Source: an uncultured Candidatus Saccharibacteria bacterium
GTDB lineage: Bacteria; Patescibacteriota; Minisyncoccia; UBA6257; 2-01-FULL-56-20
Direction of reading: 5' to 3'
NCBI GenBank assembly: GCA_965231155.1
Contig: OZ246418.1
Span: 42,266-106,265 of the forward strand
DNA: 64,000 bases
The notes beneath the pieces are model-generated. The model worked only from the letters and a program-made list of their open reading frames with translations, had not been told where the DNA came from and did not search any database. Shown here piece after piece: positions 32,601-47,264 of the stretch. Both the position numbers and the translations under genes were made by a program. The stretch's first letter is position 1; each line of letters opens with the position of its first letter.

Positions 32601-34025
32601 TTAGATAGAAAGCCTTTTCGTGATGATTGTGCGTCGGAGAGCAAATGCCCGATGCACAATCTCAGCGCCAGATTCTGAAGCATCCCTCGCGTGAGGTTGG
32701 AGTGAGTAGCGTCCTCCTTCCGTTCCCGCGTTGTCGTTCTTCAGAACAACACCGAGCTGGACAAGTCGGAGAATGGTCTTCCGAGTCGGTTCCCGCTCTA
32801 AGCCATGAGCTGATGCCGCCTTCAAGAGATCTCGTTCCCCAATTCGACGCATCCCGACATATGGTTCGTGACGGCCGGGACGAAGAAGAATGAGAATGAT
32901 CTCCTTAGCTAGACCCTCATCAACATCCTCAGGCAAGAGGCCTGCGACATCAAAGAGATCGAAGATCCTTACCCGTTCTTCGGAAGAGTGGATGATTTCT
33001 TCGACTGCATCAGAATGAGGGAGTTCCTCCGGCATCTCGTCTGGCCAGACGAGACTTCTGGCATCGAGAATACGATGTCGAGCTTTCCGCAGTCGTCGCA
33101 TTGTATCTGGAAGATCAAGCTCTGCGATGTATCCACGGATTTGCTCCTCAGACTCCTCTGAGGGTGCAAGAAAGAGGAGTCTTCTCAATTCCTCGATGAT
33201 GCCCTCACACTCAGAGTGAATCTCCTCAGGAGTAATCTCTGGCGTAGGTTCGGGATGTGGGCAAGGAGGACCCGCGAAAGGAATCCTCTGTCTCTTTGGT
33301 CTTGGCAAAGAAGGCGAAGGTGGTCGATACACCTGTCGAGCTGGTTTTACAATTCGCCTCTGCTTTCTCCTCCTCACCATAATGAAACCGAGCACAGTGA
33401 GCGCCGACAGTCCGCCGGTCATTGAAGCAATGACAAACGGGAAATCGGTGATTAGTGGTTCGATCTTCGGAGTCAGGAGAGTCTGAATCTCCTCATCTCC
33501 AAGTTTCAGAATGGAAACAAGCTCAGAAACACCGACTGGCGTCTTCACGTATAAATTGAAGGCGACCTGATAGGATCTCTCTCCGTGATCATGGAGACCT
33601 GTTCGGTCGATATACTCCTTGCCTTCCGGAGACACTCGCCTGAAACCAAGGTAGGGGCTCCCGGGGGCGGTGGGTGGAAGCAGGACTTCGAACTGAATGT
33701 ATGCTTCCCGTTTCCGGAGCGTATCGCCCGAAGACCCTTCATTCAACCAGATGATATGCGCCAACCGAAGATCGAAAGAAGAGAGACTCACTCCTTGCGG
33801 AGCAGGCACTCGCTTCTCCTGCTGATCCTTGAGCTGTTTCTGATCTTCCTCGGGAACATTGTCTTCCAGCGTTCCCACCTCAGCAACAACTCTGAGTTTC
33901 CTCGCCTGCAAAACCTCCTCGAGACGAGAAAGATTTTCCAGAACCTTGACCTCTCCAGCTATCGCCCGGTTAGACCCCGCACAAAGGAGCCAGCCGAACA
34001 AAAAAGCTGAAACCAACCTTTTCAT
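32601..34025 (-). CDS. Secreted/membrane-anchored hypothetical protein, compositionally GC-rich
   Basis: Signal peptide MKRLVSAFLFGWLLCAGSNRAIAG, one internal TM, Arg/Pro/Glu-rich C-terminal half. Codon usage is visibly more GC-rich than neighbours. Confidence 0.4.
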   Translation of the reverse strand: MKRLVSAFLFGWLLCAGSNRAIAGEVKVLENLSRLEEVLQARKLRVVAEVGTLEDNVPEEDQKQLKDQQEKRVPAPQGVSLSSFDLRLAHIIWLNEGSSGDTLRKREAYIQFEVLLPPTAPGSPYLGFRRVSPEGKEYIDRTGLHDHGERSYQVAFNLYVKTPVGVSELVSILKLGDEEIQTLLTPKIEPLITDFPFVIASMTGGLSALTVLGFIMVRRRKQRRIVKPARQVYRPPSPSLPRPKRQRIPFAGPPCPHPEPTPEITPEEIHSECEGIIEELRRLLFLAPSEESEEQIRGYIAELDLPDTMRRLRKARHRILDARSLVWPDEMPEELPHSDAVEEIIHSSEERVRIFDLFDVAGLLPEDVDEGLAKEIILILLRPGRHEPYVGMRRIGERDLLKAASAHGLEREPTRKTILRLVQLGVVLKNDNAGTEGGRYSLQPHARDASESGAEIVHRAFALRRTIITKRLSI

Positions 34026-34160
34026 ACCCTACCCCTTTCTCCCATATGGGAATGACTATGATCTACCCGCAGTATAGCAGAGAACTAATCCCCTTCAAGG
34101 TTCCTCGAAAAATAGTCCGAAGGTTGAAAAATATCCAATTTCTTACTACCATACGAAAGC

Positions 34161-34187
34161 TACACTATATTCTTGCAATATAGTGTT
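34161..34187. repeat. Perfect 9-bp inverted repeat (ACACTATAT-N7-ATATAGTGT) just upstream of tRNA-Gln
   Basis: Seen directly in sequence; located in the divergent region between the 32601-34025 gene start and the tRNA. Confidence 0.3.
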
Positions 34188-34195
34188 TTCTTACT

Positions 34196-34266
34196 TGCCG
34201 GGTCGTCTAATGGTAGGACAACGGACTCTGAATCCGTTTATCTTGGTTCGAATCCAGGCCCGGCAG
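34196..34266 (+). tRNA. tRNA-Gln (anticodon CTG)
   Basis: Manual cloverleaf: acceptor TGCCGGG/CCCGGCA, D-arm GTCT-AATGGTA-GGAC, anticodon arm ACGGA-CTCTGAA-TCCGT (anticodon CTG), T-arm CTTGG-TTCGAAT-CCAGG, discriminator G. Confidence 0.8.
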
Positions 34267-34360
34267 CAGTCTAGTTTAGTATCGATGGACCAGGAGCTGT
34301 AATAAATGACACCCAATAACCTGGACGGGTTATTAAGAAAACTATACTCTTGTTCTCATA

Positions 34361-37300
34361 ATGTTTGACGCTTCTGACTTACAGCTTAATCCCAAAGAAA
34401 TAGATCCTCCCGGAAGTCCGGATAAGTTCGAAGCTTTCTGTTGCGCACTAGTACGAGAAGTCTGGAAGGATCCTACAGCTGGACGCATTGGACGATCAGG
34501 ACAGAAGCAGAACGGGCTCGATGTTATTGCCCGTTACAACATGGGAGCAGAATATTGGGGACTACAGAGCAAGAACAAGGATTCTTTAACAGGCTCCCTC
34601 TCAAGGAGCGATGTAGAAGTAGAAGTGGAAAAAGCTAAAGGATTCACACCCCCACTGAAATGTTTTTACATTGTAACCACTCTTCCACGAGATCAAGCCC
34701 TTCAAGCTATCGCACGAGATATTACATCTAAGAATCTTTCTCTTGGACTTTTTTCTGTACACTTTTGGTTTTGGGAAGATATTTGCGAGCACCTTCTCGA
34801 ACATCGAGAGCTTCTTTACATCTATTGGCCTCATTTACGTCCTGGGACACAAACTAATCCGAGCAGTGCTCCTTCTTCTATCAAGAAAGGTACCGAGAAG
34901 ATTCTTGAAGATGAGGCAAATCTTCGGGAAACCAATATCACGAACTCTGGAACTGGCACCATTAACATCGCCATCGGAGATGGCGGGACCGTTACTGTTA
35001 TCCCCGACGAAAAGAAAGAGATCCACGCCAAACTCGATATAATTCGAAATTACATCGATGAAAATATCCCCATAACAGCCCTGCGTGAATTGGAGCAGAT
35101 CAAAAAGGATCACTGGGTAACCGCAGATAGTATATTGAAATTCAGAATTCTAACTAACATTGCCGCTTCAGAATCGAAGGTAGGCAAAGAAAGTGACGCT
35201 GGGAAACATTTCATCGAAGCTCTTCAATACAATCCTAATGACGAAAAGGCTTTATGCAATGCGGCAACCGGTTATCTTATTCAAGAAGATAAAGAAGAAG
35301 CACGGAAATATATTCAGAAGGCATTGATGATAAACCCAGCTAGCGACCGTGCTTTTTCTTTAACGATTTACGCTGCGCCTACTGGTGCATTTATCGAAGA
35401 ACTTCAAAAGAATATCCCTTCGATAAACCTAAGGTCTGCCCCTGTTTCTTATGCCATTGGATTCGTCTTAAGAGCTAGGGGTGAACTTGAGGAATCAATC
35501 CCATGGTTCAGACAAGCAGCCGATATGGCACCTACGGATATAGAGATGAGCACTTCGTTAGCTGAGACATTACTTCAGACAATTATTGATGATCAGTCTG
35601 TTGTGTTCGGCCAACAATTGACTGAAAAAACACGAAACCTCTTAAACGAGATTGATGACATATTTAAGAAAGCGTGGAATACAGTGTCCAACAAAGAGAT
35701 AAAAGTATATAGAACAAGCTGGCTTTTGAATCGCAGTCTCGTAAATAAATTATTGAGCAACTACGATATTGCAATTCGGACAGTAGACGAGGCGCTTGAG
35801 TTAAGACCAGATGATCTGAGTGTGATTAAGCAAAAAGCGATTCTTCTCTTTGAAGGCGGAAGGAAAGATGAAGCTCTTGTGTTTATTAAGGATATAATCA
35901 AAGATACCTCAAAACCGGAGATGGTTATCCCGGCCGCTGCGCTCCTTGCAAGCACATCTCATTATGATGAGGCGCTCGAGATACTTAATAGTTTAAAAAA
36001 TAAAACTGACGACAAGAAAGCTATCGCCGAAGCAAACCGGATGCTCGTTGATTTACTAGGAGCGGTGGGCAAATTTGAGGATGCTAGAATCTTGTCTGAC
36101 CAAATAATGATTGCGGAACCTGATAATATTGGATATTACATTGATCGAGCGAATCTTCACTCAGCAATAAAAGATACGGACGGAGTCCAAAAATATATTG
36201 ACCAAGCAAAAATTCGGGCAAATGAAAGTTCTTCCAAAAGAGAGCTGATCGAACTAGCCAATGCCTTATATAAATTTGAGAAATTTGCTGATGCAAGTGA
36301 TATCTTCACTTTGGTTGCTGATAAAAACACAGACTCCGATCTCACGCGAAAGCTACTTAATAGTTATTACCGCGCCGGCAAACTGGGGGAAGCTCTGAAA
36401 GTGATCCAAGCTCTTAAGGCCGGAACTGTGTCTTCCAATAAATATCTTGTAGAAATGGAATCCTCAATTTATGAGGAGATTGGAAACTGGCAAAAGGCGA
36501 AAGAAATATGCCTCGAATTCTTCAAAAAGAATCCCGAAGACAACGAGATTAAGATTCGATATGCCGCTGCCTTATTGAGGAGTAGCACCACGGAAGACCT
36601 AAAAGAACTTGATGAACTACTCGACTCGGAAATTGATACTTCTGATTTCTCTTTTAATTTATGGATGCAACTGATAAATCTATATGAATTTCGGGGACGA
36701 GTAGGACGTGCGATTGCTTCAGCATATGAAGCCCGAAGAAAGTTCTTCAATATGCCCGAAGCACATATTCAATACGTTGGTGTTTTTTTCCGGCGCGAGA
36801 AAGTCCTCGACCCAGAGCTTAACTGTTTGGAAGCACAGGAGAATTCAGCGATCCTTTTGGGAGATGGCTTATCCAACGACTGGTTTATACTTGAAAAACG
36901 AAAAGATTCTGACTTAAATAAAAAAGAAATAAATCCCGATCATCCTCTATTTTCTCTTTTACTTGGGAAGAAGACTGGTGATGAAATTATTGTGCAAAAC
37001 ACGGGACCAATCCCTGACAAGAGAAAGATACAAGAGATTAAACATAAATTTGTTTATGCCCTGCACGATAGTTTAAATAATTTCAGTTCTAGATTCCCTA
37101 CGGCTGGTGGTCTTTGGGGTATTAAAGTAGGCACTACAACAGACTCCTCTGAGGGAGAGGCGCCTAACGGGATAAAGCTAATACTTGATCAAGTTTCTAA
37201 GCATGACAATTTCATCCATAAGGTAGAGGATTATTACAATAAGGGTCGGCTCACTCTTGGGGCATTCGGCAAGTTAATTGGGAAAGATGTATTGACTGTC

Positions 37301-38335
37301 TGGGGCGGTATCATTTCTTCTCAAGGCTCTGGAATCCAAGCTTCTCTTGGAACTCCTCAAGAACTTAAAGAAAGCACCCTACTCCTAAGACGCGTCCCTC
37401 CATTGAAACTAGTTATTGATCCTGTTTCTATTATGACAATTCACGGTATGGGAATGGCCGATAGTCTGATAAAGATATTTGGACGACCGATAGTTACTTC
37501 CTCAACAGTTGATCTCATTCGAGTTGCTATTGCAGAGAAAGGAGGTCTCGGCTCAGACGGCTATATGAGCATCGCTAAGGAAGGAGACAAGTTCGTTAGA
37601 AACGAAGTTACTCCTGAGCAAATGACAAAACATATTCAGTATCTCGATTCGATTGCGAAATGGATTGAGAATAATTGCGACATACTTCCTTGTGAACCCG
37701 CTCTCTCTATAGACAGAGATATCCGAAAAAAGAACGAAGAGATTCTAGGCAGAGAATCCTATGAAACAATATTACTTGCGGCTCAACCTGGAAACCTTTT
37801 ATATTCTGACGATGAACGACTTCGCGCGCTCGCTCGGAATGACTACAATTGTACTCCTGGTGTTTGGACTCAACTCTTGATGATGGAGATGCGAGAGAAG
37901 AATGTCATTACAAAAGAAGCGTACGCACAAGCTATTCTTAAACTACTCAACTCTAAATATCGACACACAAGTGTTAGCAAGGAAGTGATGGTAGAAGCAG
38001 CAATTCAGGCCTCATGGAAGATCCGGGAGCCACTCACAAGCGTCCTCGCAAAACTTAAAGAAGGAGATGCTGATACCAAATCAGCCGCGGCAGTAAGCGC
38101 AGAGTTTCTTTTAGAGATTTGGAATAAAGAAAATGCTATGTCTCCCGAAGAGAAGGAAAATATGACGAGTTATCTAGCTGGAGTTCTGGTAGAGAATCGG
38201 TCGTTCACAGATGTGCTCTTCCAATTGAGAGCCGAGCTTGCACGAGTTTTCAAGAGTAATTCTCTTGAAAAAGAAGAGGTGATGTCGGCATTACGTGCTT
38301 GGGCCAAAGAGAGCGGTATCACTTACGAAATTTAG
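34361..38335 (+). CDS. Giant multi-domain protein: N-terminal Mrr-cat-like (PD-D/ExK) nuclease domain, central TPR array, C-terminal alpha/beta domain of unknown function (possibly PIN-like)
   Basis: N-terminus FEAFCCALVREVW...GRSGQKQNGLDVIA...EYWGLQSKNK matches Mrr_cat pattern (FE..L...G....RSG..DgGiDvia....vQcK). More than 12 TPR-like helical repeats in residues 230-760. C-terminal LKLVIDPVSI...LYSDDERL is suggestive of a PIN-like acidic pattern. No Walker A found. Confidence 0.55.
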   Translation: MFDASDLQLNPKEIDPPGSPDKFEAFCCALVREVWKDPTAGRIGRSGQKQNGLDVIARYNMGAEYWGLQSKNKDSLTGSLSRSDVEVEVEKAKGFTPPLKCFYIVTTLPRDQALQAIARDITSKNLSLGLFSVHFWFWEDICEHLLEHRELLYIYWPHLRPGTQTNPSSAPSSIKKGTEKILEDEANLRETNITNSGTGTINIAIGDGGTVTVIPDEKKEIHAKLDIIRNYIDENIPITALRELEQIKKDHWVTADSILKFRILTNIAASESKVGKESDAGKHFIEALQYNPNDEKALCNAATGYLIQEDKEEARKYIQKALMINPASDRAFSLTIYAAPTGAFIEELQKNIPSINLRSAPVSYAIGFVLRARGELEESIPWFRQAADMAPTDIEMSTSLAETLLQTIIDDQSVVFGQQLTEKTRNLLNEIDDIFKKAWNTVSNKEIKVYRTSWLLNRSLVNKLLSNYDIAIRTVDEALELRPDDLSVIKQKAILLFEGGRKDEALVFIKDIIKDTSKPEMVIPAAALLASTSHYDEALEILNSLKNKTDDKKAIAEANRMLVDLLGAVGKFEDARILSDQIMIAEPDNIGYYIDRANLHSAIKDTDGVQKYIDQAKIRANESSSKRELIELANALYKFEKFADASDIFTLVADKNTDSDLTRKLLNSYYRAGKLGEALKVIQALKAGTVSSNKYLVEMESSIYEEIGNWQKAKEICLEFFKKNPEDNEIKIRYAAALLRSSTTEDLKELDELLDSEIDTSDFSFNLWMQLINLYEFRGRVGRAIASAYEARRKFFNMPEAHIQYVGVFFRREKVLDPELNCLEAQENSAILLGDGLSNDWFILEKRKDSDLNKKEINPDHPLFSLLLGKKTGDEIIVQNTGPIPDKRKIQEIKHKFVYALHDSLNNFSSRFPTAGGLWGIKVGTTTDSSEGEAPNGIKLILDQVSKHDNFIHKVEDYYNKGRLTLGAFGKLIGKDVLTVWGGIISSQGSGIQASLGTPQELKESTLLLRRVPPLKLVIDPVSIMTIHGMGMADSLIKIFGRPIVTSSTVDLIRVAIAEKGGLGSDGYMSIAKEGDKFVRNEVTPEQMTKHIQYLDSIAKWIENNCDILPCEPALSIDRDIRKKNEEILGRESYETILLAAQPGNLLYSDDERLRALARNDYNCTPGVWTQLLMMEMREKNVITKEAYAQAILKLLNSKYRHTSVSKEVMVEAAIQASWKIREPLTSVLAKLKEGDADTKSAAAVSAEFLLEIWNKENAMSPEEKENMTSYLAGVLVENRSFTDVLFQLRAELARVFKSNSLEKEEVMSALRAWAKESGITYEI

Positions 38336-38340
38336 ATTCA

Positions 38341-39627
38341 CTATTCTAGGGTTAACTTCTTGTCTATTAAGATCAACTTACTTCTAAATGATTGCATCAA
38401 CTCTCGCTTCTCTTCTAAGATTCCATCTTTAAGTAGGTATTTCGCATACGATCGCAAGTCAGTTTTGTTTTGCTCTAACCTTTCTTTCTCGTCTAGGCCA
38501 AGCACCTTATTTCGAAAGTGACCGAACCGCTCCATCTCTTTTTCCAACTTCTGTCTTATGCCAATAGAATTGAGATCAATTTTATCCATAAGCTCCAAGA
38601 GTTGGGCAATTAAGACTTTTTCTTCAATATATCCGCCCTTGCAATTTCTATCTTTGAACCGAGTACAGCCATAATAGATATATTTTGCTATTGTTCCATC
38701 TTTAAGATTCTTATACTTCTCCTCTGCCGATATCCCCGAACCACAAAGCCCGCAGGACATAAGACGAGTGAATGCAAACTCTCCATGCTTTGTCCTGACT
38801 TTCCGCTGAAGCTGCAATTGCTTCTGTGTTGAGTCAAATAGTTCTTTTGTAATAATCGGAATGTGTTTTCCTTGAAACCATCTTCCACTCCCCCGAGGAT
38901 ATTCGTATCTTCCGTAGTAGAAAGTATTGTTAAAAAGAATGTACACATTACTCAACGTAAATGGTTTCCCATTTCTTGATACAAATTTTATTTCACGAAG
39001 CCATTCGTAAACTTTTCTGCCGCTCCAACCCGTTAAAGCAACTTTCTCGAACATTTCTTTTACAATAGGAGCGCGCTCAGGATCAATGAAAATATGGCCC
39101 TTCTCGTCGACATTTTTTGAATTCAGATAGCCAGTAGGCGCTACCGATGGCCAAAGCCCCATCTCGCACTTGGTTTTCAATCCCCTTTTTACATTTATGC
39201 TCTTATTGTCATTCTCTAGTTTTGCCTGGGAGCCAAGAATCATGAGGAGAAATTTCTCATTAGGATTATCAGTGAACCTCTGACTGTAAGTCTTGATCTC
39301 AACTAGTTTCTTTTGATCAAAGAGGTCAACAATTGCTCCGAGATCGCCTGCGTTGCGACTCAGTCGATCTGGATGCCAGACTAGGATACCATTGAACTTA
39401 TCCTCCCGAATGTCGTTAAGAAGCTTGTTGAATACTGGACGTTGTCCACAGTCTTTAGCTGAGTGTGATTCTCTGTAAATATCAGTAACGTTCAGATTGT
39501 CTCGCTGCGCCACCAACAACATCTCCTTTGTTTGAGAGTCTATCGAAAGAGCCTGCTTCTCCTCTGCTTCGCTAGATTTCCTCGCATAGAGGCAGTAACG
39601 GACCTCCTGAGCTATTTCTGTATCCAT
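38341..39627 (-). CDS. Large serine recombinase (resolvase N-domain + recombinase domain + zinc ribbon)
   Basis: YCLYARKSSEAEEKQALSIDSQ catalytic Ser region, then recombinase domain and C-terminal CGLCG...C..C zinc ribbon. 428 aa. Confidence 0.85.
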   Translation of the reverse strand: MDTEIAQEVRYCLYARKSSEAEEKQALSIDSQTKEMLLVAQRDNLNVTDIYRESHSAKDCGQRPVFNKLLNDIREDKFNGILVWHPDRLSRNAGDLGAIVDLFDQKKLVEIKTYSQRFTDNPNEKFLLMILGSQAKLENDNKSINVKRGLKTKCEMGLWPSVAPTGYLNSKNVDEKGHIFIDPERAPIVKEMFEKVALTGWSGRKVYEWLREIKFVSRNGKPFTLSNVYILFNNTFYYGRYEYPRGSGRWFQGKHIPIITKELFDSTQKQLQLQRKVRTKHGEFAFTRLMSCGLCGSGISAEEKYKNLKDGTIAKYIYYGCTRFKDRNCKGGYIEEKVLIAQLLELMDKIDLNSIGIRQKLEKEMERFGHFRNKVLGLDEKERLEQNKTDLRSYAKYLLKDGILEEKRELMQSFRSKLILIDKKLTLE

Positions 39628-39669
39628 ACCCCAATGGATGACGCAGACCTCCGAGGAAGTCCAGGGCTC

Positions 39670-40344
39670 TCAAGAACCCTTTATCAGCCTCACTAATTCG
39701 GCAAACTGATTTGCTCCAATATTTCCTTCGCTAATATATGGCTTTTGAGGATTGCATGTGGCGTATGGAATCTTGGTTAAAAAAGGAACAGCTTCTCTCC
39801 AAATCCGTTCACCGCGCATAACGATGACGACTGGGTTTCTTTTTAAGGCATTCCCAACAAGATGCACCGAGTAACGCTGCGAGGGTAGTAGCTCTCCTTT
39901 CCATTGATACTTAACCGAGTGATAAGGAAAGTACTCAACGCAAAATATCTTTTTGGATAGCTCTTCCCACCCTACATTCACTGCACGCATGAGCGGCCCA
40001 ACCCTTCCTTTCCACCACTCATGCCCGGCTTGCGATACCTCAGCGAGTGCCGGGTTGAAGGGATAAAAAGGATAGTCATCAAACTGATGTAAGAAGTTTG
40101 ATCGAGCAATACTACTGAATAATTCACAGGCTTTTTCTGACCCAGTTTCTAATCCATATCCAGGATTGAGGTTAAGGAGAATAATTGGCGCGTCTGGATT
40201 ACCGACATAAGGAGATGGCAGCTGATCTAATAATATCTTCCCTTTGGGATCACGACATCGATCATTGAAGACTTCGATTGCCTTTTCATCTTCAGAAAAG
40301 ATAAATGGCGGAACTGTAGGCAGATGCGTCCAAGGATTTCTCAT
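39670..40344 (-). CDS. Hypothetical protein (weak uracil-DNA-glycosylase-superfamily-like N-terminal motif)
   Basis: PYVGNPDAPIILLNLNPGYG loosely resembles UDG family motif A. Otherwise ORFan. Confidence 0.35.
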   Translation of the reverse strand: MRNPWTHLPTVPPFIFSEDEKAIEVFNDRCRDPKGKILLDQLPSPYVGNPDAPIILLNLNPGYGLETGSEKACELFSSIARSNFLHQFDDYPFYPFNPALAEVSQAGHEWWKGRVGPLMRAVNVGWEELSKKIFCVEYFPYHSVKYQWKGELLPSQRYSVHLVGNALKRNPVVIVMRGERIWREAVPFLTKIPYATCNPQKPYISEGNIGANQFAELVRLIKGS

Positions 40345-40365
40345 AGCCCGAGGGGATAGGAGTCG

Positions 40366-41178
40366 CTACTCCCCAAATCCATTTTCGACCTTTTCAATAA
40401 ACCCTTCCTTTATAAATGTTTTTCCAGACTCTACCCCAATGCCACTTAGTTTATAGTGGAATTCTCCGAATCCAGGCACGCGATTACAATACTGTCTCTC
40501 CCCTTTTTTAAGATTGTAGAGAGAATGAGATGAAGCTCTTAGTGGGTCATCGAACTCAAAAAGAAAGTTATGAGTCATCAGCCTCCAAAGAGTCCCATTT
40601 TCACTAATACTGAATTCGATATTCTTAATATCCTCAGTCCCATCGTTAAAAAGTTCGAGCATCTTATAACTACGATTAAGACCAAATCTAACATCCACAC
40701 TCGGAATCCGATCGAATTGCAATCCCGCCGTAATAGCTGGAAAATCAGGGTGAATCTGGGAGTGTTTCATAAATAACGGAGCTAACACTTGAGCGGTTAA
40801 AGTCCCCGAGCTCCACTTGTACGAAGCGGCTTCTTCTCGAATAAGATCAATGACCTCAACCGGCAAATCATCTGGAGTGATGAACATCCACTCCTTAATT
40901 CGTAGGCCAATCTTTTTTTGACTTATAGCTTCAGCTAGCTTGCCGATATCTTCTCTTATTTTATTCCGATACTGAGAAAGTTCTTTACGCTCGGGATACA
41001 TCGGACAGTAAACTGCGCAAACAATCTGCTCATTTTTAATGTAACCGTCCACTCCCGAATCATGCCACTCTTTAAGACTTTGAAAGTTCTTTCCGTACTC
41101 AGCTCCTAAGACAGTATTTACCAATCTTTTAAACTCAATCGGATCTTCTATTTTCCGGATACGTGCGTATATATTCAT
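40366..41178 (-). CDS. Hypothetical protein with Mrr-cat-like N-terminal segment
   Basis: EFKRLVNTVLGAEYGKNF...HDSGVDGYI resembles restriction-endonuclease-like core (FE..l...G....DgGiDg). Remainder unknown. Confidence 0.35.
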   Translation of the reverse strand: MNIYARIRKIEDPIEFKRLVNTVLGAEYGKNFQSLKEWHDSGVDGYIKNEQIVCAVYCPMYPERKELSQYRNKIREDIGKLAEAISQKKIGLRIKEWMFITPDDLPVEVIDLIREEAASYKWSSGTLTAQVLAPLFMKHSQIHPDFPAITAGLQFDRIPSVDVRFGLNRSYKMLELFNDGTEDIKNIEFSISENGTLWRLMTHNFLFEFDDPLRASSHSLYNLKKGERQYCNRVPGFGEFHYKLSGIGVESGKTFIKEGFIEKVENGFGE

Positions 41179-41339
41179 AGGTTGGAGTGATTATATTCCT
41201 ACCCCATCTCAATATCCAGTTGAAAGACTGGACGAAGAGCTGTCGACAACTCCCCCTTCGCAAGGTCCCAGATCTAAGCTAGGAATGGACAAGAAAGGTC
41301 GAAAATCGGTACAATTCCTTTACAACTAAATAGCCGTAA

Positions 41340-41545
41340 GGCAGAGACCTAAACCCTCGGAGCAATCCGGCGGCATGGTCTACGAAGTCCCTTGGAAGAC
41401 ACTGAACCCCGCGTTCAGCGACTCTTCCAAGGGCCATACTGGGAAACTGGTATGGGGTCGTAAGACCTAGCTGATGCGGGGTTTAGTGTTTCTCCACCCC
41501 GCAAGACATAAACCACCTCTGTCGGGGTGAATACTATTTATTAAT
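41340..41545. ncRNA. Candidate structured non-coding RNA (nested hairpins, two GNRA tetraloops), strand undetermined
   Basis: Perfect 11-bp stem CCCTTGGAAGA...TCTTCCAAGGG enclosing inner 6-bp stem CTGAAC/GTTCAG (41389-41433); CCATACTGG-GAAA-CTGGTATGG (41434-41456); GGTC-GTAA-GACC; GCGGGGT...ACCCCGC. No ORF of at least 60 aa in a 370-bp gap between divergent genes. Confidence 0.3.
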
Positions 41546-41548
41546 TTT

Positions 41549-42229
41549 ATGCGTCTCATCTACGAAGAACCGCAGTCCATGGGAGGAGTTCTCAAAATCT
41601 ACGAGGACAAGATCGTCTACAAATCCGCCTATCTCAACCCAGAACAAACAATCCTTACCAAGCAAATTGTTTCCGTAAATCTTTCTGCTTTGCTACCTCA
41701 AGTGATTTTGGAAATGACGGGTAATCAGAAAGTTTCCATCACCACTAGCGACAAAGAAAAGATCCGAGAAACTATTCTGGATGTCATTAGTGGGACCGCC
41801 AAACCCCACCACGCAGAAGAAGTTTCTCCAGTCAGTGAACCAGAGCAACAGGAAGAAAAACCAGAACATGATGCTACCAAGAAGAAATGGGCGATATTTG
41901 GATTTGTCATTATCCTCATATGCGTAGTCGGAATATTCACAAGCGGGAGTAATTCATCACTAGTCTCTTCACTTCAAGGGAATAGATTTATGGCCGCCGC
42001 CGAAGCCGAGGGCTACGCCAAAGATCTACTTCGAAAAGAAGGATACTTAAATATAAAGCTTGGATCTTTCCCGACGATTAACGAGAATCCAGAAAAGACC
42101 ACATTCTATATCGAAAATACCTTCTCGGCAGAGATCTATGCCCGAGGTATACAAGGGACTTATGTAGCCATCGTTTCCTTCGCCCATGGTTCATATGAAG
42201 TAACAGATATCGCTTTCGAGAGAGACTAA
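41549..42229 (+). CDS. Single-pass membrane protein, unknown (N-terminal PH-like beta region, acidic linker, TM, C-terminal domain)
   Basis: TM segment WAIFGFVIILICVVGIF. No catalytic motif. Confidence 0.4.
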   Translation: MRLIYEEPQSMGGVLKIYEDKIVYKSAYLNPEQTILTKQIVSVNLSALLPQVILEMTGNQKVSITTSDKEKIRETILDVISGTAKPHHAEEVSPVSEPEQQEEKPEHDATKKKWAIFGFVIILICVVGIFTSGSNSSLVSSLQGNRFMAAAEAEGYAKDLLRKEGYLNIKLGSFPTINENPEKTTFYIENTFSAEIYARGIQGTYVAIVSFAHGSYEVTDIAFERD

Positions 42230-42233
42230 TTTC

Positions 42234-42620
42234 TTAAGAGATTGGAGGATCATCTCTATCCTTATCCAGTCGCGCCACATCTTCGAGAAGTTTCTTGAAC
42301 AATTCAGTTGCCTCTCTCATCTGCGAATTATTTTCCTCCCGGGATCTCATGTAGCGAGGATGGTTGTTATCGAGATAATACTTCGTCGCGGGAAAACTCC
42401 CTTTTTGAGCCATGACTAAGAGATTCCCTTCCATGAGATCGTTCTTATTATCCCTGCCACGTCCTAGGGCCTTGCCCATCTCCCTATCAAATCGAGAATC
42501 CCCATCTCTCCATCGGTAAATATGCGCTCGCGAGATACCGGCACGCTTCGAAGCAATACTGATATTGGCAGTTTCCTCTAGGACCTCCAGAAACTTCTTT
42601 TTATCCGCATGGCTTTTCAT
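42234..42620 (-). CDS. HTH protein resembling phage terminase small subunit
   Basis: SIASKRAGISRAHIYRWRDGD helix-turn-helix. Size, basic charge and position directly downstream of a ParB-methylase are typical of phage packaging modules. Confidence 0.4.
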   Translation of the reverse strand: MKSHADKKKFLEVLEETANISIASKRAGISRAHIYRWRDGDSRFDREMGKALGRGRDNKNDLMEGNLLVMAQKGSFPATKYYLDNNHPRYMRSREENNSQMREATELFKKLLEDVARLDKDRDDPPIS

Positions 42621-43956
42621 CTATTTTTACCGCTTTTTCTCCCGTTAGTTTTTCCCATCTTTTCTTGATCACCTCGGCGTAGATTGGCTGCTTCTCCATG
42701 AGATAGCATCGTCGCTTCATCCGGGTGGCGGCAATAAGCGTACTGCCACTTCCTCCAAAGGGTTCAACGATCAGATCGCCACGCTTGGTAAGGACTTTGA
42801 TGTAGGGAATAAGAATCTCCAATGGCTTTGTCCCGAATATAATCCCCTGTCCCGAGCTTTTCTCATCTGATGCCTTGTACCCTATGAAATCAGTTGGCTG
42901 GATCTTCTTCCCATGTTCGTAGCCTTCCCACTGGGGCTTCCCGGAGATGGCATAGAGGGCCGTTTCATATTCTTCTTGGAGGAGCTGATCTTCTGGTTCC
43001 ATGTGCATGTTCTCTTTGTCTTCTGAACTTCCAACCATAGCGATATCGTGCTTAGAGAAGAACTTGTACTTGGCCGCGAACCCTTGGGTACGGTTAGGTA
43101 GGTGCCACACGATCATGTTTTTGACCTTCCAGTACTTTTCCATCTCACCCCAGATGATCCGGAGATTCTTCCAATTCTCGTAGACAATGATGTGGAAGTT
43201 CGGCTTGGCAATCTCGGCGATGTTCGCCATCCAGAGTTCAGTGAAGTTGGATGGCAAGGTATCGGTGCCAATATATCTACGATCACGCTTCAAGCCAAAG
43301 CCTTCGATTGCTTCACCATGCTTCTTCTTGCCCTTCAGATAGTCGAGAATGTACGGTGGGTCAGTGAAACACATGTCGGCTCGTTCCTCCCCCATGAGCT
43401 TCAAGACGTCATCTCTCTCCATACTGTCCCCGCACATGAGACGCGAACCGCCAAGATCATAAACATCACCAAGCTTGGTCTCGATACTGTTGATATCCAA
43501 CTTCTCTAGTTCTTTCTGGATATCAAAGACTTCTGGCGTTTCTTCTTCCGGAAAGATGTCATCTAACTCTTCACTTGAGAAACCAATGTCCTTCAGTAAC
43601 GACTCATCGAACTCGGCCAACAAGGAGAGGTCGAACTCTCCGGTATTCTTGTTGAGCCGGATGATCAACTCTTCTTCTTTCTTCAGATCAGCAATGTGGA
43701 CATAAACGACGGGGATCTCCTCGAGGCCCATCGACTTCGCAACCTCGAAACGGAAGTTGCCGCCCACGATCACCCCCTCCCGACCCTCGGCCGAGTTGAC
43801 GATCAAAGGATCAACTAACCCATGCTGCTCGATACTTTCCCTCAACTGCGCCGTGGCCTCCTTAGACCAGACTCGTGGATTCCGTTCCGGATGTCGAAGG
43901 GACGACAAGGGAACATAACTAACCTGCAGCTTATCGCTGCTTTGTGTTGTGTACAT
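42601..43956 (-). CDS. ParB-like nuclease domain fused to beta-class N4/N6 DNA methyltransferase
   Basis: N-terminal ParB/Srx motif (GGNFRFEVAKSMG); MTase motif IV FTDPPY precedes motif I VEPFGGSGST (beta-class order). Confidence 0.8.
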   Translation of the reverse strand: MYTTQSSDKLQVSYVPLSSLRHPERNPRVWSKEATAQLRESIEQHGLVDPLIVNSAEGREGVIVGGNFRFEVAKSMGLEEIPVVYVHIADLKKEEELIIRLNKNTGEFDLSLLAEFDESLLKDIGFSSEELDDIFPEEETPEVFDIQKELEKLDINSIETKLGDVYDLGGSRLMCGDSMERDDVLKLMGEERADMCFTDPPYILDYLKGKKKHGEAIEGFGLKRDRRYIGTDTLPSNFTELWMANIAEIAKPNFHIIVYENWKNLRIIWGEMEKYWKVKNMIVWHLPNRTQGFAAKYKFFSKHDIAMVGSSEDKENMHMEPEDQLLQEEYETALYAISGKPQWEGYEHGKKIQPTDFIGYKASDEKSSGQGIIFGTKPLEILIPYIKVLTKRGDLIVEPFGGSGSTLIAATRMKRRCYLMEKQPIYAEVIKKRWEKLTGEKAVKIDEKPCG

Positions 43957-44297
43957 AAGTTTATATGAACTATTACTTTTTTCCGACAGATATCTACAAC
44001 TGAAAGAACAACCTAGACACCATTTTCAATTTTTTAATTAGCAACCTACCAACGAAGATGTCCGCAATGTAAAAAAGCATTACCAGACATAAATTTTCCA
44101 TTTTCCATATTTATTTTGTCTGTACAATGCTCCTTTACGCTGCAGGCATATAAAGAAGCTATCTCGCGTGCTCTTCCGATAAGGAAGCGCTCTATGATTC
44201 ACGTTACTTTTATTCGACCTTTAGGGTTATTATAGTGTGCTAGATAGTTCTGGCAAGTGCTATTGTGCACAACTCTCCCCCGTGATACTCTTATCCC

Positions 44298-44639
44298 ATG
44301 AAGCTTTCTGAGCTTACCGCTAAGATACGGAGTCTTCCGGCCAAACAACAAGTTGGCTTATGGGTCATCCTCAATAAATTCCACAAAGAAAAGGGAACTT
44401 GGTTTACGACGGGCGACTTCTCTCTAGAAATGCAGAACTACCTCACTCCCGATGATCCTAATCGGTTAGCCAGGATTATGGGTGGCATTATGAGTAGCTT
44501 GTTAAGAAACGGAGTTATTGAACAATTCACCGGCGGACAGAAACCAGTCTGGACGGTCTCCCCTCAAATCCATAAGTATGCAAAAGAAATAAAAGATTCT
44601 ATCTTCCCTGTAATCACCTACTGGGAAGAAGGACGGTAG
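44298..44639 (+). CDS. Hypothetical protein
   Basis: 113-aa ORF after an AT-rich 340-bp gap. No motif. Confidence 0.3.
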   Translation: MKLSELTAKIRSLPAKQQVGLWVILNKFHKEKGTWFTTGDFSLEMQNYLTPDDPNRLARIMGGIMSSLLRNGVIEQFTGGQKPVWTVSPQIHKYAKEIKDSIFPVITYWEEGR

Positions 44640-44643
44640 ATTC

Positions 44644-45117
44644 TTACCAAACTTTCTTACTGGCTAGCTTCGGAAACGCTAACGTGAAGAGTCCCAGTAA
44701 GACGCTGGTAATTAAAAAATAAAACAAGAAAGACGGTAGGATCATTATGATCCATATCGAATTAACGTAGGCGGCGGTGTTCACCTGAAGTGAAAACTGA
44801 GACATCGGTATTGGGCCCTTCGCAACTAGCGTAAATAACGTCGGGATACAAAAACTTGCAATCCCAAGAAGCAATAACCAATTCAGTGTCTGTAAAACCA
44901 ACTTAAGTGGTGGAAGCAACTTCACTATCTGGAAGCAAACATAACTCCCAATATAGAATCCGATTAATGGAGAAAATATAAACGCATTCTTCTTTTCTTC
45001 TGGAGAACCTCCGACGATATCGAAATAAGTGAGCATGAGGACTGCAAAAAACATCGCGATAGTCAGTGAAACCTCGAATCGCTTTTCCACGCCTTCGGTG
45101 AGCTCTTTCGTAGACAT
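44644..45117 (-). CDS. Membrane protein, unknown
   Basis: Four hydrophobic helices. Start set at MSTKEL to avoid overlap. Confidence 0.35.
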   Translation of the reverse strand: MSTKELTEGVEKRFEVSLTIAMFFAVLMLTYFDIVGGSPEEKKNAFIFSPLIGFYIGSYVCFQIVKLLPPLKLVLQTLNWLLLLGIASFCIPTLFTLVAKGPIPMSQFSLQVNTAAYVNSIWIIMILPSFLFYFLITSVLLGLFTLAFPKLASKKVW

Positions 45118-45131
45118 CAAAGTGTTGGATG

Positions 45132-45332
45132 CTAGAACCACCGTTTCACCCCCTTGTGATGAGAACAAGTTCCTTGGCGAGTTTTACTCGTGCTGTACGT
45201 TCCATCTTTACACTGGGCGGTAATACGCGGCTGTTTATATACGGGAATGGAAGTCTTAGCCTGCACCGGAGAGGAAGCTGCTGGGATTAAGAGCATGCCA
45301 AGTGCCATGCCGAAAAACAACTTATTCTTCAT
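45132..45332 (-). CDS. Small secreted DUF3761-like protein
   Basis: Signal peptide, then CKDGTYSTSKTRQGTCSHHKGVKRW, matching the DUF3761 C-DG-YS-S...GTCS-HGGV-W pattern. Confidence 0.55.
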   Translation of the reverse strand: MKNKLFFGMALGMLLIPAASSPVQAKTSIPVYKQPRITAQCKDGTYSTSKTRQGTCSHHKGVKRWF

Positions 45333-45431
45333 GCCCTCATCCTACTCCTTTAAGGCTTCCTGACAAGCTGTGTCGCACAATCATATGTTGTATGACCACA
45401 CAATAAGCTATTAGAATGGTCCTATAAGGGC

Positions 45432-46025
45432 ATGGAAATTGATATAAGATTTTACTTAGGAATTATTGCGGGGGTAATTTCATTTGGTGCGTACCTTATT
45501 TATTTCCGCTCAATACTAAAAGGTGAGTCAAAGCCTAACCGCGTTACCTGGTGGATCTGGACATTTATGGGAGCGATTCTTGCTTTGAGTTACTACTATT
45601 CTGGAGCAGAAAACACCATCTGGACGCCGATAGTTGAATTTATCGGTCCTTTCTTAACGGCGCTCCTCTCAATTAAATATGGAGAGGGAGGAACGGTGGA
45701 TAAGACAGATATAGTTTGCCTCTGTGGAGGGATAGTCAGCATCTTACTTTGGATTGTTACCGGAAATCCTGTCCTCGCTCTTATATTAAATCTTGCAATA
45801 GATCAGTTTGCGTTGATTCCCACGATGAAGAAATCATATCTACGACCCGAGGGAGAAAGCTTTTGGGCATGGGTTGGCACCAGCTTGGGAGATTTCGTAA
45901 ATATATTAGCGATAGAGAAATTTACCTTTGCTGTTGTGGTTTACCCAATCTGGATGTTTATTGATGATGTGATTATCGTATGGTTCCTGGGAATGGGTAA
46001 AAGAAAAGCAAGAAATAGAACATGA
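45432..46025 (+). CDS. Membrane protein, unknown
   Basis: 197 aa with 5-6 TM segments. Confidence 0.35.
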   Translation: MEIDIRFYLGIIAGVISFGAYLIYFRSILKGESKPNRVTWWIWTFMGAILALSYYYSGAENTIWTPIVEFIGPFLTALLSIKYGEGGTVDKTDIVCLCGGIVSILLWIVTGNPVLALILNLAIDQFALIPTMKKSYLRPEGESFWAWVGTSLGDFVNILAIEKFTFAVVVYPIWMFIDDVIIVWFLGMGKRKARNRT

Positions 46026-46046
46026 AACTTGCGGAACCGAGAGTGA

Positions 46047-47264
46047 TCACTGACGCTTCACTCCCGCTCTCCAAAATAGTCCTAGAAGAATTGTGCCTAC
46101 TCCCGCAACGATAAGGGCAGTAGTAGAAAAACCCATAATATCAAGCAGGATACCAAGAAGAAGTGGGGCAGTCAGATCGCCAAGGTTAATAATCCCTTCG
46201 AAGGCACTCCCCCGTTCGCCGTAGGTAGCCGGTGAACTGAATGATGTTACCAAACCTTTCTGGATGATAGCGAACCACTCAAGAACAATTCCCAAAATAA
46301 AGCTGGCCAGAAGCTTGAACCCATAATCCGGAAAAAGCACGAGACCGATCGTAACTCCTACAATGGTTACCAAGCCCAGAGCAATCAACTGATATTTATT
46401 ATGATGATCGGCAACTTTTCCCAGTGCATATCCAAATAGTGATGGGATAGTCCCTACGATACCCAACAGAATCACCATGGCCGGTTGAGCACCATCAATA
46501 TAAGCATCGATCGGAATAAAGAAGGAGATCAAAGTGCCAATAAGGGAAGAAAAGAACATAAGGGTACCCAGAAGGCGCAGATCTCCATTCCAACTGATCC
46601 ATTCCTGAATGGCCATCCGATAGGAAGCGAGCACTGAAGCTTTTCCGGATTCCGCAACCGGAGGTACTACATCGTCTGGAGCTTTCAAGGCTATAAAGAA
46701 GGCCAGCAATGCAAACGGAATAATTCCCCCAAGTAAGTAGTAAATTGGTACAAATTTGACTAGGGCCATACCAATCAAGGCTGAGCCGATCCAACCAAAG
46801 TTAGCGACCATATCCATGTATCCAAAAGATGAGTTCACATCAGTCGAATCGGTACTCCGGCGATAATAGGTATCCACCCCAATATTATTCATGCTCCACC
46901 CTATGCCGTTCACTACCCGAGCAAATACCACAAAGATTGCCATCCCAGTCATCCCCGCAAGCAGATAACCAAAACCTACCAACGGATATAGGAGTAAAGA
47001 AAAAAGGATTATTTTCTTGGCGGAACTCCGGTCGGCCCACTCACCGACTAAAGGAAGACATAGCAAACCGGTAATGTCTATAAGGGAACGAAAAAGCCCC
47101 GCTTCCGCGAATGTCTGAGAAAAATGGAATAAAAAAAGCGGGATAAGAGACTCGCCAAATCCCCAGCCAATCCAATGAGCCGTACGAGCCCAAGCAATGA
47201 TCCGCACCCCTTGGGATAGTGATCCTTTCTTGTGTTTGCGGGAGAAGGCACCGTGCAGTGACAT
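46047..47264 (-). CDS. MFS transporter
   Basis: 12-TM profile with MFS-type loop motif between TM2 and TM3 (GEWADRSSAKK). Confidence 0.65.
   Translation of the reverse strand: MSLHGAFSRKHKKGSLSQGVRIIAWARTAHWIGWGFGESLIPLFLFHFSQTFAEAGLFRSLIDITGLLCLPLVGEWADRSSAKKIILFSLLLYPLVGFGYLLAGMTGMAIFVVFARVVNGIGWSMNNIGVDTYYRRSTDSTDVNSSFGYMDMVANFGWIGSALIGMALVKFVPIYYLLGGIIPFALLAFFIALKAPDDVVPPVAESGKASVLASYRMAIQEWISWNGDLRLLGTLMFFSSLIGTLISFFIPIDAYIDGAQPAMVILLGIVGTIPSLFGYALGKVADHHNKYQLIALGLVTIVGVTIGLVLFPDYGFKLLASFILGIVLEWFAIIQKGLVTSFSSPATYGERGSAFEGIINLGDLTAPLLLGILLDIMGFSTTALIVAGVGTILLGLFWRAGVKRQ

Follow-up and report, generated by a model that had tools for sequence, protein, structure and literature searches.

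Within a 64,000-nucleotide stretch of an uncultured Candidatus Saccharibacteria genome (GCA_965231155.1, contig OZ246418.1, positions 42,266 to 106,265 of the forward strand; hereafter the window), two adjacent genes, here called geneA and geneB, are located between a gene for a large serine recombinase and a structured RNA. We consider it somewhat probable that each is a single-gene cargo independent of the other, probably with a defensive role, and that both are carried on a serine-recombinase island. The product of geneB has the fold of the uracil-DNA glycosylase (UDG) superfamily and is a distant homologue of the antiviral glycosylase Brig1, with conserved counterparts of two of its functional residues. 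The product of geneA combines a domain with a restriction-endonuclease fold, which also occurs in other protein architectures, with a beta-sandwich. Outside the strain of the window, the two families were not found together.

GeneA, the upstream gene, spans 40366..41178 on the minus strand and encodes 270 aa, while geneB, the downstream gene, spans 39670..40344 on the same strand and encodes 224 aa. Both open reading frames (ORFs) start with ATG in the ORF listing, and a spacer of 21 nt (40345..40365, minus strand) separates the stop of geneA from the start of geneB. This layout agrees exactly, coordinates included, with a first-pass annotation made from the sequence without database searches, which had described a two-gene ORFan module on a mobile island with a Mrr-cat-like N-terminal segment in one protein and a weak UDG-like motif in the other. 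The term ORFan is apt only in a narrow sense, as both proteins lack a name and a Pfam family but have sizeable families of homologues. Both are real genes and not chance ORFs, since they belong to conserved families, since the ratio of nonsynonymous to synonymous substitution rates (dN/dS) is 0.12 between geneB and its 84%-identical relative, and since both were modelled with confidence by AlphaFold (predicted local distance difference test score, pLDDT, of 94.8 and predicted template-modelling score, pTM, of 0.91 for geneB; pLDDT of 90.9 for geneA). The remote homology search that had been suggested led from geneB to Brig1 and from geneA to N-domains of the Mrr/LmuA type, and both motif assignments proved correct, the Mrr-cat-like segment for the 270-aa protein and the UDG-like motif for the 224-aa protein.

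No match to geneB was obtained in the Pfam and PADLOC scans, and its single NCBIfam match was to Brig1 (NF047634, E = 9e-9, 35.2 bits), covering only residues 34-176. The same model was matched by 50 of 51 members of the geneB family (best E = 1.2e-12), and none of the 51 matched any other NCBIfam family, including the repair UDG families. Brig1 is an anti-phage DNA glycosylase that acts on alpha-glucosyl-5-hydroxymethylcytosine (Hossain et al., Nature 2024, PMC11078745). Its sequence was taken from the supplement of that paper; one residue was restored from the printed DNA and the numbering was checked against the paper, such that Y121, N145 and E147 fall at their published numbers. In a profile alignment with hhalign, the geneB family matched Brig1 with 93.6% probability (E = 2e-7, 109 columns, about 26% identity), pairing W110 of geneB with Y121 of Brig1, and E137 with E147. 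Position 110 is aromatic (W or Y) and position 137 is glutamate in 51 of 51 family members. In Brig1, Y121 is the base-stacking aromatic residue and E147 the glutamate that reads the Watson-Crick face, and both are needed for activity and immunity; immunity is impaired by Y121A, by E147A and by E147Q, and excision is lost in Y121A/E147A (PMC11078745).

The two proteins have a UDG fold in common, and two motifs, E-x-(Y/F)-P-(W/Y)-H-S and, following strand 1, xLNPG. The segment ILLNLNPG in geneB corresponds to VVLGLNPG in Brig1, with N60 present in 51 of 51 family members, and E137-Y-F-P-Y-H-S corresponds to E147-L-Y-P-W-H-S, with H142 conserved in 46 and S143 in 49 of the 51; N60, E137, Y141 and Y158 are invariant in the family. 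UDG motif A reads, for example, GQDPY, GEAPG, GINPG or GMNPG. In geneB, the motif A loop is formed by strand 54-58 followed by N58-L59-N60-P61-G62 (P61 in 49 and G62 in 45 of 51 members), and the motif B loop by strand 133-137 followed by F139-P140-Y141-H142-S143. In a Foldseek comparison with the PDB, the first 23 matches to geneB were all members of the UDG superfamily (UdgX, family 4/5 UDG and SMUG1), with thymine-DNA glycosylase ranking lower, and the model, the Foldseek matches and the homology to Brig1 all place geneB in this superfamily. Sequence searches of the PDB with single sequences and profiles returned nothing meaningful for either protein. From these sequence comparisons, geneB is predicted with good confidence to be a Brig1-related enzyme of the UDG fold with an intact pocket, and the Brig1-type pocket very probably works.

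A profile search recovered at least 1056 clusters of the geneB family at 90% identity, all annotated as hypothetical and without a Pfam domain, as compared to 42 reported Brig1 homologues, and 264 geneB loci were confirmed in the JGI metagenomes. The family is found in candidate-phyla bacteria, Acidobacteria, Phycisphaerae and Bacteroidetes, whereas Brig1 is mostly from Actinobacteria. In the position of Brig1 N145, the geneB family has C, V or T, and the N- and C-terminal regions also differ, which suggests that the specificity of geneB may differ from that of Brig1. Because of these differences and the low identity, we treat geneB as a separate family, a sister to that of Brig1 and provisionally a new family-level variant of the UDG-derived antiviral glycosylases, although it may coincide with one of 11 integron UDG-like clusters (Getz et al.).

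Antiviral DNA glycosylases are a young class of defence proteins, in which Brig1 was described in 2024, followed by Brig2, Brig3 and the Dag families, and every known family reads a different modification of phage DNA. Brig2 (10.1101/2025.10.29.685425) and Brig3, which acts with BapA (10.64898/2026.02.25.707755), are likewise divergent enzymes of the UDG fold that excise modified phage bases; both are often found near mobile elements (about 41% of Brig2 near mobile elements or defence genes), as are the closest relatives of geneB, and the likeness drawn here is one of concept. If antiviral, the geneB family, which is large, unannotated, absent from Pfam and retains both residues essential to Brig1, would be a widespread new member of this class, possibly with a new base specificity, in hosts that include small-genome candidate-phyla bacteria, of which the phage-defence repertoire is poorly known. 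That it is a widespread fourth family of Brig-type antiviral glycosylases with its own base specificity is a tentative proposal, which we think somewhat less probable than its negation. Given the literature on defence glycosylases from 2024-2026, the result will not surprise specialists; it is useful for annotation and yields testable candidates.

We searched for co-occurrence of the two genes with tblastn, using all family members as queries, and with hidden Markov model (HMM) searches over all six-frame ORFs. A geneA-type domain was found at none of the 85 non-self geneB loci (in 57 of them, the sequence ahead of geneB extends for 850 nt or more), and geneB at none of the 11 non-self geneA loci, drawn from 7 distinct contexts; these counts are weakened by the shortness of many metagenome loci and by the fact that only 7 geneA contexts are independent. 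The one strain with a geneA-type domain next to geneB was that of the window itself (L001-L003, 100% identical). The question raised in the first-pass annotation of whether the two genes always co-occur is thus answered by their separation at all the other loci searched, and the proposed two-gene module, or defence/anti-defence pair, fails on these counts and on the replacement of geneA in the closest syntenic relative. In that relative, locus L004, the slot upstream of geneB is occupied by an unrelated ORF of 308 aa. GeneA and geneB are very probably not an obligate pair, and a conserved two-gene system is largely refuted already. A defensive role is plausible for either gene on its own. The first-pass annotation had held that homologs occurring separately in conserved metabolic operons would speak against its proposal; homologs do occur separately, but their contexts are variable and are not conserved metabolic operons. 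Adjacency of two uncharacterised genes beside a recombinase was here no evidence of a system, and it was the co-occurrence test that separated them.

A cooperating system confined to this strain, in which the glycosylase would make abasic sites in modified invader DNA for the nuclease-fold protein to cut, either there or close by, is by analogy conceivable but very improbable. The two genes are on the same strand with a gap of 21 nt, in which a terminator scan found no terminator-like site, and a single promoter-like site is located upstream of geneA. There is precedent for a glycosylase with an operon partner in Brig3-BapA (10.64898/2026.02.25.707755), and abasic (AP) endonucleases cleave the products of Brig1 in vitro (PMC11078745). 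Set against this are the lack of co-occurrence in the 85 and 11 other loci, the closest syntenic relative, which keeps geneB and swaps geneA for an unrelated ORF, and the presence of each family alone in many contexts. Brig1 and Brig2 also act as single genes (PMC11078745; 10.1101/2025.10.29.685425), and Brig1 and geneB are each one small gene. Moreover, BapA is an ASCH-like deglucosylase whereas the neighbour of geneB is a nuclease-fold protein, and the joint action of brig3 and bapA was demonstrated experimentally whereas the adjacency of geneA and geneB is not conserved and nothing ties the two together in function.

The expression signals are compatible with a shared transcript. The recombinase gene (38341..39627, minus strand) is co-directional with geneB and starts 42 nt downstream of it, and given such short gaps, with no predicted terminator, geneA, geneB and the recombinase gene are probably co-transcribed in this strain. 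We regard this as an outcome of cargo shuffling and not as a functional partnership. The promoter-like site (TGGATA-17-TATAAT, 10/12; 41190..41218, minus strand) was identified by consensus scan only; it ends 11 nt before the ATG of geneA and is the sole such site on the strand of geneA and geneB. The scan returned 2 sites as compared to 3.6 expected by chance, and the site is thus weak evidence. If it is used, the mRNA would be nearly leaderless. By inspection of the sequence, neither geneA nor geneB is preceded by an evident Shine-Dalgarno sequence, which together with the -10-like TATAAT near the start of geneA suggests leaderless or Shine-Dalgarno-independent translation in this organism.

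We also compared the neighbourhoods of geneB across its family. The genes within two positions of geneB (n = 142, Pfam and PADLOC) gave mixed tallies, with defence genes (a type IV restriction endonuclease, BrxA, Hhe, Mokosh and AbiEi), resolvases, ADP-ribosylglycohydrolase genes (at two loci) and numerous housekeeping genes among them. An ADP-ribosylglycohydrolase gene has been reported beside both brig1 and brig3 (PMC11078745; 10.64898/2026.02.25.707755), such that some relatives of geneB, like Brig1, adjoin this gene or defence genes. When 237 neighbours were clustered, the only recurrent family was that of the serine recombinases, at 4 loci and additionally at L098; a recombinase was located within two genes at about 5 of about 85 loci. 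The near clade of geneB (45-84% identity) was always in a setting with a recombinase, methyltransferase, terminase or integrase, as in the window and L004, L098 (a serine recombinase, a helicase, DUF5677 and a methyltransferase), L099 (a terminase-like gene, two methyltransferases and SNase) and L097 (an rve integrase). A phage-encoded origin of the genes, as in anti-defence, was considered and rejected, as scans of 2.9 million viral contigs gave 1 match for geneB and 0 for geneA.

Several observations weigh against reading geneB as an antiviral glycosylase of the Brig1 kind. The equivalog cutoff of NF047634 is 230 bits, far above the 35.2 bits scored by geneB, such that Brig1 specificity is not transferable: judged from its sequence, geneB is homologous to Brig1 yet not a Brig1 equivalog. 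The Foldseek scores for the UDG fold are consistent but weak (E about 1e-2, TM 0.3-0.4). Among the neighbours were genes of the repair type, namely AP_endonuc_2 and DinB_2 (two each), an AlkZ-like gene and RadC, and many distant relatives of geneB are found among ordinary chromosomal genes, for instance those for tRNA synthetases, an aldolase and transporters (L100, L101). The AP_endonuc_2 neighbours belong to the TIM-barrel, Endo IV-like superfamily. A repair role is therefore still to be considered, in which geneB would be a housekeeping or damage-repair glycosylase of a divergent UDG family, acting on uracil or some other lesion in the DNA of its host cell, and its position on the island would be incidental. 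The fold and motifs of the UDG superfamily, the many chromosomal family members and the occasional repair-type neighbours would all suit this role, and Brig1 and Brig3 keep weak uracil excision (PMC11078745; 10.64898/2026.02.25.707755). However, the sole detectable NCBIfam relative of the family is the antiviral Brig1 and not a repair UDG, its distribution across phyla is patchy and low-copy, the near clade is invariably found in islands of the recombinase, methyltransferase or terminase type, and the neighbourhoods are highly variable, with defence genes in them and no conserved repair operon. On balance we think the repair role rather unlikely.

It is much less likely still that geneB serves the mobile element together with the recombinase, in maintenance, in the exclusion of competitors or in the processing of the element's own methylated DNA. 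The adjacency of geneB to the recombinase gene (42 nt, same strand) is kept in both the window and L004, no neighbour family other than the serine recombinases recurs, and N6_N4 methyltransferases are present in the islands of the window, L004, L098 and L099. The low share of loci with a recombinase within two genes, and the majority of family members that have no mobile-element neighbour, argue against such a service, and no recombinase system is known to need a glycosylase.

Defence by excision of a modified phage base, as against repair, has by analogy with the Brig enzymes an even or very slightly better chance of being the role of geneB. By the same analogy, geneB, distantly homologous to Brig1, would act as a monofunctional DNA glycosylase of the UDG superfamily: it would flip a non-canonical pyrimidine, probably one with a phage-specific modification, into a pocket lined by the aromatic W110 and the invariant E137 and cut the glycosidic bond, and the abasic sites thus left would block replication of the invading DNA. 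GeneA would be a separate small effector, its N-domain being the same module as in the tetratricopeptide repeat (TPR) sensor proteins and the TPR-GreAB-C-PIN proteins.

The N-domain of geneA (aa 1-150; 40729..41178, minus strand) has a PD-(D/E)xK nuclease fold with the alpha-beta-beta-beta-alpha-beta core, and is followed by a C-terminal beta-sandwich of the immunoglobulin-like or discoidin-like type (aa ~156-262; 40393..40713, minus strand), which most likely mediates recognition of a target or ligand, or oligomerisation. The geneA family consists of 33 clusters. The PADLOC model for LmuA (PDLC03852) matched 27 of the 33 members (best E = 1.9e-11), and the match of geneA to it is limited to positions 16-155 of 336. 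For Pfam Mrr_cat (PF04471), geneA of the window scored 13.5 bits (E = 0.079) against a gathering score of 21; 21 of the 33 members matched the model, none of them reaching that score (best E = 1.4e-4). The values tabulated for geneA were 10.2 for AF1548, 10.0 for FokI, 9.1 for LlaBIII, 9.0 for N.BspD6I, 8.9 for Avs4, 8.0 for AspBHI and 7.4 for MspJI, and the fold is thus common to geneA, to cleavage domains of the Mrr-like or type IIS type (AF1548, FokI, LlaBIII) and to the N-domain of Avs4. A hhalign comparison of the geneA family with the FokI cleavage domain gave no significant alignment.

An HMM search of 1.84 billion representatives with the N-domain returned 445 matches at 50% identity, of which only about 7 representatives have the full two-domain architecture of geneA. 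The 144 listed lengths include 52 of about 450-470 aa and 16 of about 1150-1560 aa, as well as others. All three of the tested carriers of about 1200-1560 aa (P0203, P0217, P0230) were proteins with TPR and PIN-TPR-GreABC regions, and TPRs were also carried by one protein of 465 aa and one of 704 aa. The domain heads varied sensor-type conflict proteins and so behaves as an N-terminal effector module. We are highly confident that the fold of the N-domain is that of restriction endonucleases and that the domain is a module of the effector type.

Its signature reads D40-x-G-x-D44-G-Y ... A55-x-Y57-C-P ... K73-x3-D77-x2-K80. In 132 diverse sequences, D40 was conserved in 100%, G42 in 99%, D44 in 98%, A55 in 83% (with Q in 14%), Y57 in 73% (otherwise H or F), C58 in 90%, P59 in 85%, K73 in 98%, and D77 and K80 in 95% each. 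D44 precedes predicted strand 45-47, and from predicted strand 52-56 onward the sequence reads A55-x-Y57-C58-P59, with no lysine. The canonical (D/E/Q)xK of strand 3 is thus replaced by AxYCP in geneA, with the conserved K/D/K on the following helix; this mapping of the catalytic residues is derived from predicted secondary structure.

Against a defence nuclease speak the location of K73, D77 and K80 on predicted helix 67-86, beyond the strand that usually bears (D/E)xK, and the missing lysine of strand 3, which together make the nuclease activity of geneA uncertain; in addition, 3 of the 7 other geneA contexts are housekeeping or uninformative. GeneA may thus be catalytically dead, a DNA- or ligand-binding protein with a nuclease fold, a regulatory protein or a decoy, and the prevalence of A55-x-Y57-C58-P59 in place of the canonical (D/E)xK of strand 3 (percentages above) and the failure of all Mrr_cat matches to reach the gathering score agree with this view. 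However, D40, D44, K73, D77 and K80 keep 95-100% conservation in proteins of widely differing architecture, as would be expected of a functional active site whose residues have been relocated, and in TPR-sensor and TPR-GreAB-C-PIN proteins the domain stands at the N-terminus, in the place of the effector. Relocated active-site residues are known in some PD-(D/E)xK enzymes. A dead geneA is in our view doubtful, and the chance that it is a catalytically active defence nuclease is even or somewhat less. Definition of the chemistry of the N-domain would help to annotate several hundred multidomain proteins. A bolder combination would make the N-domain an unrecognised catalytic variant, with AxYCP and K-x3-D-x2-K in place of (D/E)xK, that would serve as the effector of many TPR-sensor immune proteins and here would cut at abasic sites made by geneB, such that candidate-phyla bacteria would have a locally assembled mark-and-cut defence against phages whose DNA carries modified bases; taken jointly, these claims are highly unlikely to hold.

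GeneA belongs to none of Lamassu, Avs and TPR-GreAB-C-PIN, as their defining parts are missing. With LmuA of Lamassu it has the N-terminal effector in common, but not the C-terminal region of LmuA or an adjacent LmuB/SMC gene. In Pfam tables and scans, none of the genes directly flanking the other geneA homologues matched an SMC-type family, with several of them having no Pfam match at all and those of L086 mostly unscanned. Avs4 has a STAND ATPase, whereas geneA has none and carries instead the C-terminal beta-sandwich of about 110 aa. With the TPR-GreAB-C-PIN proteins (PF20698) only the N-domain is common, and Pfam identified no TPR, GreAB-C or PIN in geneA.

The other contexts of geneA are varied. 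One homologue follows a type II restriction-modification system (L085), a second has a Mrr_cat_2 helicase on one side and, on the other, a type I restriction-modification system that includes MauJ and DUF5677 (L092), a third has an AcrVA2-like gene and an Rhs toxin as neighbours (L089), and a fourth comes after a gene for an AAA_16 ATPase of 400 aa (L087/L094). The genes located 12-31 nt before some geneA homologues encode this AAA_16 P-loop ATPase (4786-5988 in L087, 5786-6988 in L094) and a protein of 563 aa without a family (5278-6969 in L089). Proteins of the geneA type may thus have alternative partners in other lineages. PADLOC returned nothing, or marginal matches to the P-loops of QatA and PifA, for the 400-aa ATPase (L087), the 563-aa protein (L089) and the 308-aa ORF of L004.

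The first-pass annotation was also right about the setting, a mobile island beside a recombinase. The serine recombinase has 428 aa and matches to Pfam Resolvase (2.2e-24), Recombinase (2.5e-17) and Zn_ribbon_recom (4.2e-6). L004 is the closest relative, with an 84% identical geneB on a syntenic island, and it keeps geneB, the recombinase, the LOOT RNA and a ParB-methyltransferase block. Identities between L004 and the window are 85% for tRNA-Gln, 75% for dnaX, 85% for the ParB-methyltransferase block and, at the nucleotide level, 71% for geneB plus the recombinase. Besides the geneA slot, two further slots have been exchanged. In one of these, a variable slot of the defence type that is flanked by the recombinase and tRNA-Gln and is about 2 kb from geneA, the window has a gene for a TPR-GreAB-C-PIN protein of 1324 aa (34361..38335, plus strand; PF20698, 8.1e-31, and many TPR families), which in L004 is replaced by a superfamily 1 helicase of 1189 aa plus an MTES_1575 nuclease. 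In the other, an ORF of 226 aa is replaced in L004 by a tRNA_anti-like protein with an OB-fold. The swapping of three slots points to turnover of cargo in the island and not to an operon.

The N-terminus of the 1324-aa protein was not matched by the HMM of the geneA-type N-domain, and hhalign found no significant alignment between it and the geneA family. A likeness of the two N-termini noted by eye was therefore dropped as unsupported by both hhalign and the HMM built from 132 sequences. The N-terminus of the window protein (34361-34870) differs from the geneA-type N-domain of P0203, P0217 and P0230, and swapping of N-terminal effectors within the TPR-GreAB-C-PIN system seems to be common.

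The island spans about 10 kb, is of the serine-recombinase type and extends from tRNA-Gln to the ParB-methyltransferase block. A repeat search for attachment (att) sites over 33800-46500 gave only short matches at chance level, and its borders are therefore defined by synteny only. The gene for tRNA-Gln(CTG) (34196..34267, plus strand) is a conserved flank of the variable region; its 3' end (34249-34262) matches the interior of geneA (40467-40480) at 13 of 14 nt, probably by chance. On the other side, a gene for a fusion of ParB_N with an N6_N4 DNA methyltransferase (451 aa; 42601-43956, minus strand) overlaps by 20 nt with one for a helix-turn-helix protein of 128 aa (42234-42620, minus strand) that has weak matches of the HTH_Tnp_1_2 type, and this block looks like a backbone module of a phage or island. 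The 226-aa ORF (41549-42229, plus strand), between the LOOT RNA and the helix-turn-helix gene, encodes a membrane protein with a weak, non-significant match to DotU/TssL.

The structured RNA is a LOOT RNA (RF03000; 41346..41468, plus strand), which scores 77.5 bits where the gathering score is 46.4. It is divergent from geneA and is context only, outside any unit of geneA and geneB. A text search of the literature on LOOT RNA returned no functional information. In L004, a LOOT RNA (8643-8761, 77.7 bits) occupies the same position on the island. The protein genes flanking the RNA have been swapped between the two genomes while the RNA itself is kept, and it may thus belong to the backbone of the island. 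A promoter-like site (TGGACA-18-TACAAT; 41286-41315, plus strand) is located just upstream of the LOOT RNA.

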